The notes below the pieces were generated by a model, which saw nothing but the letters and a program-made list of their open reading frames with translations, did no database searches and was not told the origin of the DNA. From a bacterium (GTDB lineage Bacteria > Electryoneota > Tariuqbacteria > Tariuqbacterales > JADHWD01): 12,237 nt of DNA. Positions 61 through 11,385 of this stretch are shown one piece after another (the first letter of the stretch is position 1; each line of letters opens with the position of its first letter). A program made the translations under genes and the position numbers. The DNA lies in contig JADHWD010000082.1 of assembly GCA_016783645.1 (NCBI GenBank), positions 1 to 12,237 of the forward strand, in the 5' to 3' direction.

Positions 61-100
61 GCATAGGTTCAATTTAAAATTTAAAATTAAGAATTTAAAA
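61..100. repeat. AT-rich tandem of ~8-bp aatttaaa units
   Basis: aatttaaaatttaaaattaagaatttaaaattatc. Preceded by a GC hairpin at 4-24 (ccttgccgg aaat ccgcaagg). Confidence 0.5.
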
Positions 101-140
101 TTATCATATTAAACATGGATACACAGGATATTCAGGATAT

Positions 141-218
141 TAGGGGGCTGACACATAGGTCTTCCCCTACATCTCAGATTATTCGGTTTTCTGTAGGGGC
201 GAACCCATGTGTTCGCCC
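141..218. repeat. REP doublet: degenerate REP-A (141-170, tagggggctgacacataggtcttcccctac) plus REP-B (193-218, GTAGGGGCGAACccatgtGTTCGCCC)
   Basis: Palindromes seen directly; the same units recur at 509-576, 851-921 and 1582-1652. Confidence 0.8.
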
Positions 219-3132: not shown

Positions 3133-3148
3133 TTTGCTCCTCTATAAT

Positions 3149-3177
3149 CCTATACATGAATGTGATGTGTTATTCAA
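3149..3177 (-). promoter_or_regulatory. candidate sigma70-like promoter for flotillin (TTGAAT-17-TATAGG on minus strand)
   Basis: Minus-strand read ttgtcttTTGAATaacacatcacattcatgTATAGGattatagaggagcaaaATG. The -10 is weak; inference only. Confidence 0.2.
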
Positions 3178-3441
3178 AAGACAATCGGGTGGAAATTGTC
3201 CGTTGAAAAAATTTTATTTAAGAAATATACGAAAAATATTTCAGATATTCAAAGAATTTGCGAATTATTTCACGGAATTGTTAGGGGCGGAAAGCTGAGG
3301 ATTAGGGAGTACAGGAGGGCATTACTATTCCGGAAAAATTTACTTAAATAATAGGTTTATAAAAGTTCAATAGTTTGATTATGTTGTATTATAATAAATT
3401 AAACACAATAATCTACAAGTCCTTCAACAAATATCCGCATG

Positions 3442-4527
3442 TCACTTTGATCTATGGTATGCTGGCACGGAAATGATCTTTAAAGCTGTCGGCGGATCAT
3501 AAGATGGTTTATATACATTAACAATATCATGTTTGATGTATGATGGCATTCCGTAAGCGGGATCAGTGGAAATTGCGCTCATCATGCCGCAGGATTTGAT
3601 TTTCCAAAAACTTACATCACCGGAGTTCCAGCGTAAAAGATTATCCGGATATTCATTGTAGACCGCTCGCATAGCCTCACCGATATTGCTCCAGGTTTCA
3701 TCTATCAAATCATTAGGTATGAAATAATCTTCATCCTCCGACCAATCCCGGTTTATCGCCCAATTGTATTCATCGGACATGTAATAGTCCTTGAGGAACA
3801 GATCATGGTAGCCAAGCCATTCGATGCGCATATACATCATCTTACAATAGGGCCATTCAATGCCATTGGAGAATAATTCAGATAAGTCCACAAAATTATA
3901 GACTCCCGGAGCACCTACATCAACCGGATAGACAAATACTTCATCCTCAAAAATATTATCGGTGGAATGGAGAAATACTTTCATAATTGGATCTGTTTCT
4001 TCGCCCACCAGATTATATCCCATATTGAAAACCAGATGAAGATCCACCGGTTGTCCAGTCAAGCTGGTCGAACCGTATCCGAAAATATAATGCTCCTGAA
4101 CTATTTCTCCTTCATCATGCACTCCCGCCAACGCATAACGGCAATAGCCCCATGGCTCATAATCGCCAATATAACCAGTCCCGACCGGACCAAGATATGT
4201 ATTCCAGAAAAATTGATTGAATTGCTGTCCGTCGACATAGTTGCCAAGGTTCACGCCGTTTGGGCCCTCTTCCAAATTGTTATACAGAGTCTGCAATGCG
4301 TCGAAGCCCGAATTTCTAAAATTGTCGTAATGTTGCTCCCAAGCAAAATTACAGTAGGCGGCGTTTAAGCCCAGACTGTCCATTTCCGGGAATTCATCAA
4401 TCGGAAAACTCAATACCGCTTTGTGAATTTCGCCTTCCTCTAAAGCGAAGCATAAAGATAAAACCGCCAGGGTGGAAACTAACGCCTTCAACATGGTGAA
4501 GACCCAAGATGATTTTGTTGTAAGCAT
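3442..4527 (-). CDS. hypothetical secreted protein, acidic and aromatic-rich (W/Y/F), 4 Cys in the mature part; no recognisable family
   Basis: ORF 3442..4539. ATG at 4527 is preceded by GGAGG with a 5-nt spacer (tATGGAGGcagaaATG). Signal-peptide-like N-terminus MLTTKSSWVFTMLKALVSTLAVLSLCFA. No lipobox and no T9SS C-terminal domain. Confidence 0.6.
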   Translation of the reverse strand: MLTTKSSWVFTMLKALVSTLAVLSLCFALEEGEIHKAVLSFPIDEFPEMDSLGLNAAYCNFAWEQHYDNFRNSGFDALQTLYNNLEEGPNGVNLGNYVDGQQFNQFFWNTYLGPVGTGYIGDYEPWGYCRYALAGVHDEGEIVQEHYIFGYGSTSLTGQPVDLHLVFNMGYNLVGEETDPIMKVFLHSTDNIFEDEVFVYPVDVGAPGVYNFVDLSELFSNGIEWPYCKMMYMRIEWLGYHDLFLKDYYMSDEYNWAINRDWSEDEDYFIPNDLIDETWSNIGEAMRAVYNEYPDNLLRWNSGDVSFWKIKSCGMMSAISTDPAYGMPSYIKHDIVNVYKPSYDPPTALKIISVPAYHRSK

Positions 4528-4640
4528 TTCTGCCTCCATAAGAATAAGTTAATAGATATTTGGTAGTAAAATATTCACTGGCTATTTTGGCTATTATGGC
4601 TATAAAATTCAAAACTCGAAATCCGAAACGCAATTAACCA

Positions 4641-4680
4641 CGAATAAACACGAATGTTCTCGAATATGCACGAAAAAGAA
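4641..4680 (+). repeat. Four 10-bp phased repeats, CGAAnnnnnn x 4
   Basis: cgaataaaca cgaatgttct cgaatatgca cgaaaaagaa. Two more CGAA are at 4617 and 4624. The array runs straight into unit U2. Confidence 0.6.
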
Positions 4681-4761
4681 TTCACAAGCTATTAAAGCTA
4701 TGAAAGCTAAGAAATCCGAAATTCGACACAATGATTTAACCCGGATATACAGGATTAAATC

Positions 4762-4793
4762 AAGGCAAAAGTAAAAAGTCAAAAGGCAAAAGT
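4762..4793 (+). repeat. Direct repeat AAGGCAAAAGT x 2 (21-bp period), with AAAAGT x 3
   Basis: aaggcaaaagtaaaaagtcaaaaggcaaaagtg, seen directly. Confidence 0.6.
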
Positions 4794-5068
4794 GAAACAT
4801 TCACAGCAGATGAAGCAGATTAAGCAGATAATATTCACTGGTAATAATGGTAATTATGGTAATAATAGCTTTAATTGCTTTAATAGCTTGTGAATATTTA
4901 TCACCATTATCACCATCATCACCAGTGAATCTCTTCATCGTTTAATTCGTTGTGAATCTTTTTCCGCGTTCCGAGCTAAATAGCGATAATAGCCATAATA
5001 GCCAGTGAATCTCTTTCATACTTTTTTCATTCATTATTTACTATTCTAAATTCACTATTCTCAATTAT

Positions 5069-6610
5069 TTATTTCATCAACACTACCTTCTTCACCGTCG
5101 ACTGTCCACTGTCTACTGTCAACCGAATGAAATATATCCCGCTTGACAAATCCGACCCATCGAAAACCGCTTCATGATACCCAAGCGACAGGAGACCAGT
5201 GACGAGTGTCTGCACTTCCCGCCCCTGAAGGTCATATACCGTCAATTCCACATCGCTGTCAGCTGTGAGCTGAAAGCTGATAGCTATTTTCGCGTTGAAG
5301 GGATTGGGATAAGCCTTGATTAGAGCGAAATCGGAAGGCGGACTCGAAGGAATCCGCTCTTCCACTCCCACCGCCCAGGCGCTGTCCCCGGCGAAGATGT
5401 TCACATAGCCGTAGGGGATAGCCGCTCCCCACATGATATCGTCGATACCGTCATTGTTCACATCGCCGCATTCACCGATTACACTGCCGATGTTCAGACC
5501 GCCCGTGAATAAAACATCGCAGATGCCATCCATCCAAGGACTGCCGAAATAGATATAAACCGCGCCCATACTGCCGAAAGCATTGAAATTTCCAACGATT
5601 ATATCGCCATAACCATCTCCATTGCAGTCTCCGGTCGATGATATTTCGCTCGGAGTGCCGGCGTAGGAAGATATTGACAGTTCCATATCGCATTGGTTGT
5701 CCATATTGACGCCGCCGAAATAGACCATTACTTTATAAATTTCATATCCCACGAATTCGCAATCAATCGTGACGAAATCATCAAAATCGTCACCGTTCAA
5801 ATCTTCCACGATTGCGAATTTATATTCAGTGGCTATAGTCAAATCCGGTATAGTGTCCGGTTCCGCCCCGCCGAAGAAGATGTATAGGTTATCAGGGGGA
5901 TAATAACCCTCCTTGACTGCGATGTCGTCATAGCCGTCCCCGTTCAAATCGCCGCCGCCGATGAGTTGAAAGCCAAGCATATCATACTGATCAACGCCAT
6001 TAACAATCCAATCGGGGATAGTGTCCATTTCTGCGGCGCCATAGTAAATCAAAATTCTGCCCCGGGTATCATTGTATAGTGTTTGCGACACCAGCAAGTC
6101 ATCATAACCATTGTTGTTAAAATCACCGGCAGTAGATATTCTCCCAAAAGTATTAGGATAGTTTCCAGAATTTATTACTAAATCCGGAATAGTGTCAGGT
6201 TCAACACCTATGTTATAAATCAAAATCTGACTTTGTTCTGAGCCTAACCAAGCGACAATCCCTAATTCATCCAACCCATCACCATCTATATCTCCAATAT
6301 TCTTCAATGTGTATGAACTCAAGGTGCCTGTAGAGTATGTCAATTCAAAATCATGGATGGAATCCATGGGGCTTCCACCATGATAAATTAAGACAGATCT
6401 GAAATAACTGCTTTCGCCTACGCCGATGGCAATATCGTCGTATCCATCGCCGTTTTGGTCGCCGATTCCGCAGACGGCTTGACCGAGGTACATGTGATCC
6501 GGCTGCCAGGACTCGGCGTGGAAGATCAACTGCGGGGGTTGGGAAAGGGCAGTCGAGATAACGGAGAGAAAAAGGCAGAAAGCTAAAATTAAGAATCTGT
6601 AAAAATTCAT
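5069..6610 (-). CDS. FG-GAP repeat (integrin-alpha-like beta-propeller) protein with T9SS C-terminal sorting domain (Por_Secre_tail type)
   Basis: Multiple GDxNGDGYDD(I/L) calcium-binding-like FG-GAP repeats. C-terminus KAYPNPFNAKIAISFQLTADSDVELTVYDLQGREVQTLV...GIYFIRLTVDSGQSTVKKVVLMK matches the T9SS C-terminal domain pattern. Signal peptide MNFYRFLILAFCLFLSVISTALSQ. The ORF-track start is GTG; ATG at 6610 is preceded by GGAGG with an 8-nt spacer. Confidence 0.8.
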   Translation of the reverse strand: MNFYRFLILAFCLFLSVISTALSQPPQLIFHAESWQPDHMYLGQAVCGIGDQNGDGYDDIAIGVGESSYFRSVLIYHGGSPMDSIHDFELTYSTGTLSSYTLKNIGDIDGDGLDELGIVAWLGSEQSQILIYNIGVEPDTIPDLVINSGNYPNTFGRISTAGDFNNNGYDDLLVSQTLYNDTRGRILIYYGAAEMDTIPDWIVNGVDQYDMLGFQLIGGGDLNGDGYDDIAVKEGYYPPDNLYIFFGGAEPDTIPDLTIATEYKFAIVEDLNGDDFDDFVTIDCEFVGYEIYKVMVYFGGVNMDNQCDMELSISSYAGTPSEISSTGDCNGDGYGDIIVGNFNAFGSMGAVYIYFGSPWMDGICDVLFTGGLNIGSVIGECGDVNNDGIDDIMWGAAIPYGYVNIFAGDSAWAVGVEERIPSSPPSDFALIKAYPNPFNAKIAISFQLTADSDVELTVYDLQGREVQTLVTGLLSLGYHEAVFDGSDLSSGIYFIRLTVDSGQSTVKKVVLMK

Positions 6611-6651
6611 GTTATGGACCTCCACACGGTGGTTTGAATGTTGTTGGAAGG

Positions 6652-6873: not shown

Positions 6874-6920
6874 CCCTCATGCCGATCAGTCGGCACAACT
6901 TAGCATGAAAATAGTTTCAA

Positions 6921-6945
6921 GGGCGACCGCAAGGGTCGCCCCTAC
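6921..6945 (-). repeat. REP-C (minus orientation: GTAGGGGCGACCcttgcGGTCGCCC)
   Basis: 8-bp stem gggcgacc/ggtcgccc plus a ccctac tail. Confidence 0.7.
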
Positions 6946-6960
6946 ACCACGACGCAATTA

Positions 6961-6988
6961 GTAGGGGCAAACGGCCGTTTGCCCCTAC
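6961..6988. repeat. REP-D: perfect 28-bp palindrome GTAGGGGCAAACGG|CCGTTTGCCCCTAC, flanked by a 7-bp direct repeat gcaatta
   Basis: gcaatta at 6954-6960 and 6990-6996; seen directly. Confidence 0.8.
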
Positions 6989-7011
6989 TGCAATTAGATG
7001 ATCATTTTTAG

Positions 7012-7032
7012 GAGCAGACCTTGCGTCTGCCC
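7012..7032. repeat. REP-A-like variant (gagcagaccttgcgtctgccc)
   Basis: Stem gcagac/gtctgc. Related to the tagGGGCAGAC...GTCTGCCCctac family. Confidence 0.5.
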
Positions 7033-9040: not shown

Positions 9041-9048
9041 ACGGAAGT

Positions 9049-9085
9049 TACAAGTAATAAGATACAAGTAACAAGTTGCAAGTCT
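9049..9085 (+). repeat. Simple heptad-like repeat (ACAAGTA / ACAAGTT / GCAAGTC) just after the pckA stop
   Basis: ttacaagtaataagatacaagtaacaagttgcaagtc. Confidence 0.5.
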
Positions 9086-9144: not shown

Positions 9145-9200
9145 GGTGGGTAAAGAACCCACCCTGCTATTTCTAACAGCTGACGACTATTTTCAGATTA
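9145..9200. repeat. Composite repeat R3 (variant of R1/R2): hairpin GGTGGGTaaagaACCCACC + ctgctatttctaacagctgacgactattttcagatta
   Basis: Same architecture and tail motif as 6833-6873. Confidence 0.6.
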
Positions 9201-9211
9201 ATGATGCATTT

Positions 9212-9278
9212 GTAGGGGCGAAGCATTTTGGGAAGATGATGTAAATGCGGCGATGATAGAAAAATGCTTCGCCCCTAC
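9212..9278. repeat. REP-E / MITE-like 67-bp element: 18-bp inverted arms GTAGGGGCGAAGCATTTT ... AAAATGCTTCGCCCCTAC around a 31-nt loop
   Basis: Perfect 18-bp arms. The loop, gggaagATGATgtaaatgcggcgATGATaga, is itself a small inverted repeat. The same family occurs nested at 11170-11385. Confidence 0.85.
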
Positions 9279-9289
9279 AGAATTGGCAG

Positions 9290-9310
9290 CCCGGTTTCTC
9301 CGAAACCGGG
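9290..9310. repeat. Hairpin CCCGGTTTC tcc GAAACCGGG (9-bp stem)
   Basis: Seen directly. Confidence 0.6.
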
Positions 9311-11158: not shown

Positions 11159-11169
11159 TATGCATAATA

Positions 11170-11385
11170 GTAGGGGCGAAGCATTTTTCTGTTATGATGC
11201 ATTTATTTACACTATATAGCCTCTTGCAAAAGTATGAAAACACATCTGGTAAGGGCGAAGCATTTTCACCATCATATTCAAATATTTCATCATTTTCCTG
11301 AAAATGCTTCGCCCCTACAGATACAGGATTACCCTTTGAGGATTTTTGCAAGTAACTCTATATACAATAAATGCTTCGCCCCTAC
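11170..11385. repeat. Nested REP-E composite palindrome (~216 bp): outer arms 11170-11188 / 11369-11385, inner element 11249-11318, extra inverted pair cttgcaaaagta 11223-11234 / tacttgcaaa 11347-11356
   Basis: Arms GTAGGGGCGAAGCATTTTT, GTAAGGGCGAAGCATTTT, AAAATGCTTCGCCCCTAC, AAATGCTTCGCCCCTAC. The inner loop caccATCATattcaaatatttcATCATtttcc is the reverse complement of the 9212-9278 element loop. Confidence 0.8.

Follow-up and report, generated by a model that had tools for sequence, protein, structure and literature searches.

Repeat modules of ATTCAC and tandem nonamers in an Electryoneota intergenic spacer and their probable relationship with GxxExxY nuclease genes

Introduction

REPIN-RAYT systems are composed of repetitive extragenic palindromic (REP) sequences arranged as doublets that form hairpins (REPINs) and of a single-copy gene for a REP-associated tyrosine transposase (RAYT) (PMC3116915, PMC5581495, bioRxiv 10.1101/2022.05.22.493013). 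Here we describe an array of repeat modules at positions 4573-5010 of a 12,237-nucleotide stretch of DNA, hereafter called the window, from a bacterium of the Electryoneota (assembly GCA_016783645.1, contig JADHWD010000082.1), together with the genes for small nucleases of the GxxExxY family with which such modules are associated at other loci. Our best reading of 4573-5010 is that of a nest of gene-less, non-autonomous arm modules of GxxExxY elements.

Several other types of bacterial repeats are relevant for comparison. The bacterial interspersed mosaic elements (BIMEs) of enterobacteria combine palindromic units with other motifs, foldback-type miniature inverted-repeat transposable elements (MITEs) have inverted repeats built of short tandem subrepeats, and the short tandemly repeated repetitive (STRR) heptamers of cyanobacteria are short tandem intergenic repeats. 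On the enzyme side, the PD-(D/E)xK fold is found in proteins involved in DNA mobility, including TnsA of Tn7 and the PD-(D/E)xK homing endonucleases. TAACTGA direct repeats occur in Beggiatoaceae, Cyanobacteria and Bacteroidetes (PMC4679880); the same article summarises the work of Mrazek (2007) on long simple sequence repeats (LSSRs) with 5-11-nt units. A survey of the PD-(D/E)xK superfamily lists PDDEXK_2/YhgA-like 'putative transposases' and gives PDDEXK_3, the family of the GxxExxY proteins, as 'Unknown' in function, with 'multiple transfers' (PMC3424549).

Results and Discussion

Anatomy of the ATTCAC array

The array lies in the spacer 4540-5068, which extends from stop codon to start codon between two genes of the minus strand; it occupies the 3' flank of the upstream gene (5069-6625) and the 5' flank of the downstream gene (3442-4539). 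It consists of seven units made of the hexamer ATTCAC followed by three tandem 9-mers (hereafter called words), plus one two-word unit. Four units are oriented rightward and four leftward. All eight had been delineated in an earlier note on this DNA, and they are present where it placed them.

On the plus strand, U1 (4573-4605; TGGCTATTT/TGGCTATTA/TGGCTATAA after the hexamer) is of the TGGCT word type, U2 (4680-4712; AAGCTATTA/AAGCTATGA/AAGCTAAGA) of the AAGCT type and U3 (4799-4831; AGCAGATGA/AGCAGATTA/AGCAGATAA) of the AGCAG type. U4 (4833-4865; plus strand; TGGTAATAA/TGGTAATTA/TGGTAATAA) and U6 (4898-4930; minus strand; TGGTGATGA/TGGTGATAA/TGGTGATAA) form the left and right arms, respectively, of a hairpin-form element at 4833-4930, and U5 (4863-4895; minus strand; AAGCTATTA/AAGCAATTA/AAGCTATTA) is a single arm placed exactly in its loop. 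The note had given U5 a truncated third word, but this word is full in the above reading, in which U5 overlaps U4 by 3 nt. The two remaining units are also on the minus strand, namely U7 (4931-4957; AACGAATTA/AACGATGAA followed by GAG), the two-word variant, and U8 (4978-5010; TGGCTATTA/TGGCTATTA/TCGCTATTT). The latter, in sense orientation, is the first unit past the upstream gene, whose stop codon lies 59 nt from it. Five word families are thus mixed in the window, TGGCT, AAGCT, AGCAG, TGGTR and AACGA.

Within each of the seven three-word units, the tandem 9-mers agree at 16-17 of 18 compared positions, and Tandem Repeats Finder reports all seven (U1-U6 and U8) as period-9 arrays. The pattern ATTCAC-N5-AT-N7-AT-N7-AT has six matches in the window, every one inside 4573-5010, and none in 200 dinucleotide-preserving shuffles; U2 and U7 fail this strict pattern through their last word alone. 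ATTCAC is found 18 times in the whole window, where 7.1 +/- 3.0 occurrences would be expected, and half of the observed copies (9/18) fall in 4573-5055. A single unit comprises the hexamer and direct tandem 9-mers and has no internal palindrome.

The inverted pairs proposed earlier were recovered, with U1:U8 matching at 29/33 positions, U2:U5 at 29/33 (28/30 by repeat search) and U4:U6 at 28/33, i.e. 85-93% complementarity. The arms of the first pair reach 54 nt at 78% identity (4568-4621 with 4962-5015). The interleaved order of the units (U2<U4<U5<U6) is likewise genuine.

The remainder of the spacer also consists of short tandem repeats, of 7, 10 and 14 nt, all detected on the plus strand by Tandem Repeats Finder. 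A decamer module, CACGAATNNA, is repeated 3.6 times at 4639-4674, and this module (AACCACGAATNNACACGAAT) adjoins ATTCAC units at two other loci (L009 and L054). Heptamers (AAGTCAA/AAGGCAAAAGT) at 4762-4797 resemble the filler in the intergenic regions of relatives, with a near-identical stretch (atcaaggcaaaagt...) at L131 4820-4860. Heptamer and 14-mer repeats at 5036-5066, with a ninth ATTCAC at 5050, directly follow the stop codon of gene 5069-6625; in L054, the hexamer also precedes a heptamer tandem (TAACCCC x4). Like BIMEs, the array is an intergenic mosaic of repeats in alternating orientations and other motifs, located between co-directional genes; unlike BIMEs, whose units are palindromic and interact with IHF, gyrase and Pol I, its blocks are tandem-word modules.

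A dispersed repeat family

We scanned one genome per species with the pattern ATTCAC-TGGNNATNN-TGGNNATNN-TGGNNAT, which has 21 fixed bases, and collected 51 loci, against an estimate of about 0.3 expected by chance. Most are from Ca. Tariuqbacter arcticus (phylum Ca. Electryoneota, in the Fibrobacteres-Chlorobi-Bacteroidetes group) and from the metagenome-assembled genome (MAG) CAYQZD01, and the others are from KSB1, Poribacteria and Bacteroidota MAGs; the matches in L035, L036 and L045 lie in unrelated coding or long-array sequence. A general scan of these loci yielded 76 units in ~279 kb (83 in 291 kb with seven from the window), nearly all of them intergenic. The units are built from a limited set of words, TGGCWATNA, TGGAWATNA, TGGTAATNA, AGGCTATNA, AACGRATTA and AGCRGATKA, a set that covers the types of U3 and U7, which are partnerless in the window. 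The closest relatives of U1 are units in L052 and L044 (30/33).

The usual form in Tariuqbacter is a ~75-nt hairpin in which ATTCAC with three words on one side and three inverted words with GTGAAT on the other enclose a 9-11-nt loop. In CAYQZD01, the units usually occur singly, in sense orientation and 20-70 nt past a stop codon, a placement found for U8 as well. They are surrounded by a recurring mosaic of heptamer repeats, a GC-rich REP hairpin, an inverted AGCRGAT unit and the CACGAAT decamer module that is also present at window 4639-4674. We found 23 hairpin-form elements spanning 66-98 nt, the window's U4:U6 (98 nt) among them, and 33 distinct short-loop hairpins over all loci. The search for the units in other genomes has thus revealed dispersed copies, including inverted-repeat forms, in several of them, and it is well supported that the ATTCAC-nonamer array is part of a dispersed family and not a one-off local device.

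Like STRR, LSSR and TAACTGA sequences, these are intergenic tandem repeats of 7-10 nt distributed patchily over phyla, and such repeats accompany the ATTCAC units. Unlike those open-ended arrays of one word, the units have a fixed hexamer, an inverted partner and a linked gene (see below). Each unit does contain two to three tandem words, and Aphanothece has 17.7 copies, but the hexamer, the near-constant number of three copies and the inverted partners are additional features. In that cyanobacterial isolate, Aphanothece hegewaldii (L045 5362-5532), the sequence GTGAAT-tt-ATTCAC is followed by TGGCRATAC (TGGCGATAC) x17.7, a word resembling those of the family, though here in a long open array.

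Linkage to genes for GxxExxY nucleases

At two of the loci selected through their units, the same small gene is flanked on both sides by hairpins. Searches with tblastn identified four such genes in unit-selected loci, and all four are directly bracketed by units (L039, L041, L050 and L010); L039 is a 526-bp arm-bounded element, and L041 and L050 have a hairpin-gene-hairpin arrangement. The gene codes for a GxxExxY protein of ~135 residues (TIGR04256/PF13366, PDDEXK_3), a PD-(D/E)xK nuclease.

To control for selection bias, we fetched 72 metagenome loci on protein similarity alone. Inverted matches of at least 20/24 between the 200-bp flanks of the gene were present at 26 of the 34 loci with at least 52% identity, compared with 0/79 control positions, and the density of ATTCAC/GTGAAT was 6.2 per kb in the gene flanks versus 1.1 per kb elsewhere. 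Complete elements of 520-560 bp comprise, in order, ATTCAC and its words, 20-40 nt, the open reading frame (ORF), 15-50 nt, and the inverted words with GTGAAT. Arm-bounded elements of this kind are found in L062, L039, L093 and L069, and the hairpin-gene-hairpin form in L041, L050, L067, L078, L057 and L063. Some lineages have deviating hexamers (TTTCAC, CTCAC), and other ends also occur. More distant GxxExxY genes have inverted arrays of quite different short words on both sides; in finished isolate genomes, a Bernardetia gene is flanked by 28-nt inverted repeats of CACAGAGA words, and a Treponema gene by 16-nt inverted repeats. The linkage of the repeat family to the GxxExxY gene is well supported by these sequence comparisons. 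We propose to call this class 'GxxExxY-associated repeat elements', defined by inverted modules of matching word type on both sides.

Between such ends, in 30 or more loci, the sole gene found is that of a GxxExxY nuclease, and never that of a transposase. This bears on the suggestion of the earlier note that the array is a nest of a new small MITE family, in conventional terms deletion derivatives of an insertion sequence (IS) with a DDE transposase and 33-bp terminal inverted repeats. As in MITEs, the elements are small and non-coding, with inverted ends, a short interior, many scattered copies and a gene-bearing counterpart with the same ends, and of the four hypotheses of the note, this one came closest. 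However, neither a transposase parent nor target-site duplications were seen, the counterpart gene is single-copy at a fixed site, and its ends, unlike IS inverted repeats, are tandem 9-mers that vary by lineage in a code-like manner. We therefore regard a conventional MITE nest as very unlikely.

The catalytic D...ExK and the GPGFxExxY motifs are conserved in the proteins. The structure model is confident and predicts a plain PD-(D/E)xK nuclease fold, closest to Cas4 and restriction enzymes; no solved structure with GxxExxY was retrieved by sequence search. The PADLOC defence-system search returned weak Cas4 similarity alone, and PHROG gave no match. A phage origin was also considered and set aside, as scans of two viral collections yielded a collagen-like coding repeat alone, besides the lack of PHROG matches. 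The fold itself has precedents in transposition, recombination and homing (PDDEXK_2/YhgA-like proteins, TnsA, homing endonucleases), and GxxExxY is a bare ~135-residue domain devoid of an additional DNA-binding domain. Our literature search on GxxExxY, PDDEXK_3/PF13366 and TIGR04256 retrieved no functional study; mentions of GxxExxY were incidental and TIGR04256 was absent.

The gene positions are stable. For the exact proteins P0046 and P0075, contigs from different samples (11 and 12, respectively) all show the gene in a single genomic context. The neighbours are frequently co-oriented with the GxxExxY gene, upstream in 21/21 loci and downstream in 22/27.

A number of observations concern the surroundings of these genes. 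At L070, L072, L073, L078, L079, L081, L083, L093 and L136, the hexamer abuts or overlaps the upstream stop codon (TGATTCAC, TGAgATTCAC, TAGgATTCAC); alternatively, the upstream ORF runs through ATTCAC and is closed by a TGA or TAA within the first word. In-frame stops are provided by the AT-N-A tail that is constant among the words. At L068 760-1330, a segment made of ~70 nt of the 3' end of a nucleotidyltransferase gene, an ATTCAC unit that begins 1 nt past its stop codon, and ~150 nt is present as three tandem copies upstream of the GxxExxY gene, which could be a footprint of unit copying. In L083, L086, L088, L093 and L136-L145, elements with different words directly follow the stop codon of the same enoyl-CoA hydratase gene (...FVEKRKPEW...) in several organisms, and the L093 protein is distant in the tree from the others at that site; this could reflect long vertical persistence or repeated targeting.

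In several lineages (L095, L096, L097, L101, L102, L103 and L104; match at ~1501-1884 in each), lepA (EF4) carries an in-frame insertion of the GxxExxY domain between ITIKxQPVRMxY and YxLNLIDTPGH. The ORFs read through the insertion, with the flanking inverted words translated, and code for 598-729 residues (699-729 where the whole gene is on the contig). The site is intein-like in that it lies in a conserved essential gene, yet no splicing domain is present.

The L050 island (3280-5370) consists of small co-oriented genes, with an ATTCAC hairpin between successive modules; it contains two RelE/ParE-like toxin-antitoxin pairs, a small ORF and the GxxExxY gene. Its organisation prompted a comparison with integrons, but ATTCAC...GTGAAT does not fit the RYYYAAC...GTTRRRY core of attC sites, no integrase is encoded in the window, and units are also found after housekeeping genes.

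Correspondence between word types and nuclease lineages

In a neighbour-joining tree of the proteins, the nuclease clades correspond to word types, with an AGCAG/AGCGG/AACAG clade, a TTGAN/TTGGG clade, and AAGCT grouped with AGGCT and TGGCW with TGGAW. The distances between proteins and between consensus words (positions 1-5) are correlated (Mantel r = 0.29), a value reached in 0 of 10000 permutations. Within the module, the constant parts are ATTCAC and, in every word, the AT-N-A tail. The dispersed words also match those in the flanks of the genome's own gene, i.e. TGGAW in Tariuqbacter and TGGCW in CAYQZD. The best explanation for the mixture in the window is that its word families correspond to different GxxExxY lineages.

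Several window units can be related directly to modules bordering nuclease genes. U5 is identical at 33/33 positions to the right arm of the arm-bounded L062 element (L062 1451-1483), and U2 matches the two arms of the same element at 29/33 and 28/33. U3 matches a hairpin arm beside the L057 GxxExxY gene at 32/33 and the L059 arms at 31/33. The two-word form of U7, ATTCAC AGCGGATGA AGCGATGAA GAG, is found directly upstream of the L083 GxxExxY gene, and AACGAATTA words of the U7 type flank that of L064. The L062 gene (coding for P0002) comes from the same ENA sample as a contig identical to the window, at similar coverage (6.2 vs 5.7), and the 'cccggtttctccgaaaccggg' module is common to the L062 contig and the window. 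More generally, the window units fit the anatomy proposed for the GxxExxY-associated repeats, with an outward-facing hexamer and two to four tandem 9-mers ending in AT-N-A. The window contains no GxxExxY gene or remnant, and its units are therefore gene-less, non-autonomous copies; in an hmmsearch of the six-frame translation with all filters off, made to detect a decayed GxxExxY gene inside the array, scores remained below 0 bits.

Pairing, RNA folding and inversion

The earlier note had argued that an invariant hexamer combined with pair-specific 9-mers favours selection on complementarity over a protein recognition sequence. Because the downstream orphan gene matches only itself and five further assemblies are nearly identical to the window in this region, divergence between orthologous regions is uninformative, and we used the hairpins of the family instead. 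In 18 hairpin-form relatives, U4:U6 included, 81.3% of cells are paired, versus 81.5% with shuffled partners. At word positions 5 and 8, pairing is lacking in 13-17 of the 18 hairpins (alignment A3; e.g. L014 372-446, L038 3909-3983 and window 4833-4930), and in 13 Tariuqbacter-type hairpins, the arms agree at these positions in 0-23% of cases, versus 35-50% between unrelated elements. This mismatch rule holds for TGG- and TTG-type words, not for the AGCAG or AAGCT types. On the top strand, the mirrored mismatch positions are T/T, A/A or purine/purine, and the arms may keep the word pattern on both strands while steering clear of a perfect palindrome.

The argument for complementarity is not supported, given that the paired fraction equals that of shuffled arms, that the words recur and that they track the nuclease clade. 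By inference, the mismatch pattern rather favours recognition of the words on DNA by a protein and selection against long perfect hairpins. The inverted pairs appear interleaved because members of one word family occur in both orientations, and in view of the lack of pairing covariation, the limited set of recurring words and their correspondence with nuclease clades, this interleaving is a by-product of mixed orientations and not a designed pseudoknot. The proposal of phased binding-site arrays may be partly right, if the words are read by the linked nuclease. Look-alikes of DnaA boxes, sigma-54 sites and iterons were also sought by eye, and no convincing match was found.

The same data weigh on the first hypothesis of the note, a structured RNA, namely a 3' untranslated region (3'UTR) of the upstream gene or a 5' leader (5'UTR) of the orphan whose long, partly exclusive hairpins would regulate termination, processing or translation. 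The two flanking genes share the minus-strand orientation, and the minus-strand RNA of the spacer is predicted to fold more strongly (-165 kcal/mol, z = -9.8) than the plus-strand RNA (-135 kcal/mol, z = -8.3). On the minus strand, the U6:U4 stem contains 28 Watson-Crick pairs, 4 G-U pairs and a single mismatch; on the plus strand, the G-U sites become A-C mismatches. G-U pairs are likewise more numerous in the extended U8:U1 stem of the minus strand (5, versus 1 on the plus strand). Units of relatives are in sense orientation right after stop codons, and no canonical terminator or sigma-70 promoter was predicted in the spacer. These features provide a weak hint of an RNA role. The strong predicted fold of the minus strand is no evidence of regulatory design, as any cluster of inverted repeats folds strongly, and the G-U excess amounts to one or two independent substitutions copied over tandem words. 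Moreover, pairing covariation is absent, the variable positions are mismatched above chance, and identical 33-nt modules are found beside unrelated genes in several phyla. A search of 4300-5300 against Rfam 15 returned no family, with generic long hairpins (microRNA precursors) alone, far below the gathering threshold (e.g. 32 vs 130 bits). A dedicated regulatory RNA is, on balance, quite unlikely.

The note had also envisaged an invertible or recombinogenic switch, considered here as a phase-variable one controlling the downstream gene. The geometry would be suitable, since ~33-nt inverted repeats bound segments of ~155 and ~370 bp upstream of a gene for a probable surface or secreted protein. 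In the five further assemblies, which come from different samples, the spacer is almost identical to that of the window, and all six sequences have a single orientation, with point differences alone. There is no recombinase gene in the window and no promoter-like site within the segments, and the repeats belong to a dispersed family rather than being locus-specific. These observations make a switch extremely improbable.

A proposed relationship between modules and nuclease

The ATTCAC system shares several properties with REPIN-RAYT. In both, the enzyme gene is present as one copy at a stable position, between short repeats of its own that are also dispersed in intergenic DNA as gene-less inverted doublets and singletons; the repeat type matches the enzyme lineage, several types coexist per genome, and the repeats cluster in mosaics. 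In these respects, the behaviour of the GxxExxY gene follows the REPIN-RAYT profile, not that of an insertion sequence. The components differ, however. The enzyme is a PD-(D/E)xK nuclease and not an HUH/Y1 transposase, a unit is made of the hexamer and approximately three tandem 9-mers as opposed to the 20-40-nt imperfect palindrome with a GTAG head of REPs, and each word has two positions at which the arms of a doublet are systematically mismatched.

We propose that a complete element comprises a ~135-residue GxxExxY gene between two inverted modules or two hairpin doublets. Each nuclease lineage would recognise its own words, positions 1-5 serving as specificity code and the AT-N-A tail as common part, and would act on the invariant hexamer or close to it. 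Together with subsequent repair or recombination, this action would create, shuffle and maintain gene-less copies placed in intergenic DNA downstream of co-directional genes, while the nuclease gene would remain single-copy and stable, a relationship akin to that of a single-copy RAYT with its REPINs. We infer, as the somewhat more probable course of events, that the nuclease recognises the words, has the hexamer as its site of action and is responsible for spreading or maintaining the copies. Direct observations are the existence of the repeat family and its association with the gene, the covariation of words with nuclease clades and the stable position of the gene.

Several points weigh against this proposal. 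Binding of the words, cleavage at the hexamer and an active part of the nuclease in the spread of the modules are deduced from sequences. Neither the window nor 16.5 kb of the 26-kb contig contains a GxxExxY gene, and the nuclease elements are tied to the window organism by arm identity, a shared sample, similar coverage and shared repeat modules, not through one assembled genome. Mobility of the units or of the gene was not observed as strain polymorphism. At two GxxExxY loci, no presence/absence, copy-number or structural polymorphism was found in 6 and 10 assemblies, and at the window locus, neither inversion nor presence/absence polymorphism was found in the six sequences. Our inspection by eye, which was not exhaustive, detected no target-site duplications bordering the arm-bounded elements or the hairpins on the outside. 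Nested insertion alone cannot produce the interleaved order U2<U4<U5<U6, and the units must therefore also recombine. In two of the bracketed genes, an in-frame stop replaces a glutamine codon (L039 4908-5315, EP*KP, and L050 4856-5269, DV*VG, both on the minus strand), which suggests decay of some copies, or assembly errors. The data are mostly metagenome assemblies, in which gene calls are ORF heuristics.

Causation could also be reversed, the repeats being a preferred landing site of the gene. In this alternative, the main rival of our proposal, short tandem repeats made by replication slippage, like cyanobacterial STRRs or the TAACTGA heptamers, came first and offered a selfish GxxExxY gene sites for landing or homing, the window representing unoccupied sites and the nuclease neither making nor spreading the repeats. 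These genomes are indeed full of other 7-10-nt tandem repeats, ATTCAC precedes heptamer tandems in L054 and the 17.7-copy array in Aphanothece, the number of words varies from 2 to 4, and intergenic heptamer repeats across phyla have been documented (PMC4679880). The arm-bounded genes of L039 and L062 furthermore resemble a gene in a hairpin loop, as U5 lies in the loop of U4:U6. Slippage alone, however, leaves unexplained the fixed word number of about three, the outer hexamer, the inverted pairing, the recurrence of words across phyla and their correlation with nuclease clades, and in L041, L050, L067 and L078, the gene is located between two complete hairpins and not within one. We thus consider the repeats-first scenario unlikely.

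Under the proposal that the modules are gene-less relatives of nuclease elements, the window array is most likely selfish or neutral repeat DNA rather than a bespoke regulator of the flanking genes. As a broader and more tentative hypothesis, the widespread GxxExxY (PDDEXK_3) nucleases might be the enzymes that belong to a so far unrecognised class of repeat elements spread over several phyla, forming a second REPIN-RAYT-like partnership. We did not find such a repeat-plus-enzyme partnership in the literature searched, and part of it may already have been described, for instance among cyanobacterial small dispersed repeats. If correct, this hypothesis would reveal an enzyme that reads lineage-specific words beside a common hexamer and maintains both hairpin and single-arm gene-less copies, in a manner mechanistically unrelated to REPIN-RAYT. 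It would provide a second independent case of a stable enzyme with a population of repeats, with implications for the vertical persistence of such 'replicators', as well as a first functional handle on the GxxExxY proteins, which are annotated by the thousand at NCBI without a function. Five variable and four constant positions, repeated three times per arm, would constitute a natural modular DNA-recognition system, and thereby a candidate nucleic-acid recognition code testable with oligonucleotides. It would also account for odd low-complexity intergenic sequences that break metagenome assemblies and yield spurious gene calls.

Flanking genes and other repeats of the window

The flanking genes correspond to their earlier description as a gene for cargo of the type IX secretion system (T9SS) and an orphan gene. 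The upstream gene (5069-6625, minus strand) codes for a protein with FG-GAP repeats and a T9SS C-terminal sorting domain (Pfam FG-GAP and Por_Secre_tail, NCBIfam TIGR04183). The product of the downstream co-oriented gene (3442-4539, minus strand) has 365 residues and a hydrophobic N-terminus and matches only itself in similarity searches. The source pipelines also called a 45-residue gene without family match across U6-U5-U4 (window 4800-4937, minus strand, equivalent to L001 9602-9739), most likely a gene-calling artefact. On reading the sequence, we discarded the possibility that the units are coding, as the frames through them have stops or lack a start.

The window also harbours a RAYT-like ORF at 297-863 on the minus strand, with a match to NF047646 (E 7e-14) whose 52 bits fall short of the cut-off of 80 and a Pfam match to Y1_Tnp (E 3e-4). 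GTAGGGGC...GCCCCTAC REPs, and no ATTCAC units, border the ORF on either side (150-296 and 864-929). These REPs do fit the imperfect palindrome with a GTAG-type head, and with the ORF they make up an ordinary REPIN-RAYT system that is distinct from the ATTCAC family. REPs of the same type are present at 1590-1660, 6920-7030, 9200-9290 and 11160-11320 and occupy most other spacers of the window. The array spacer is devoid of them, as noted before, but they do not fill every other intergenic region, since 3133-3441 also lacks a canonical copy.

Finally, other short tandem repeats (AATTTAA, CAGGATATT, AAGTTAC, GTTGACA and CCCTAAA-like) are found at gene ends, in the window (71-141 and 9045-9083), in L062 (1-60 and 2070-2157) and in L024 (5960-6030). 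Several contigs terminate in short tandem repeats, which suggests that these cause assembly breakage.

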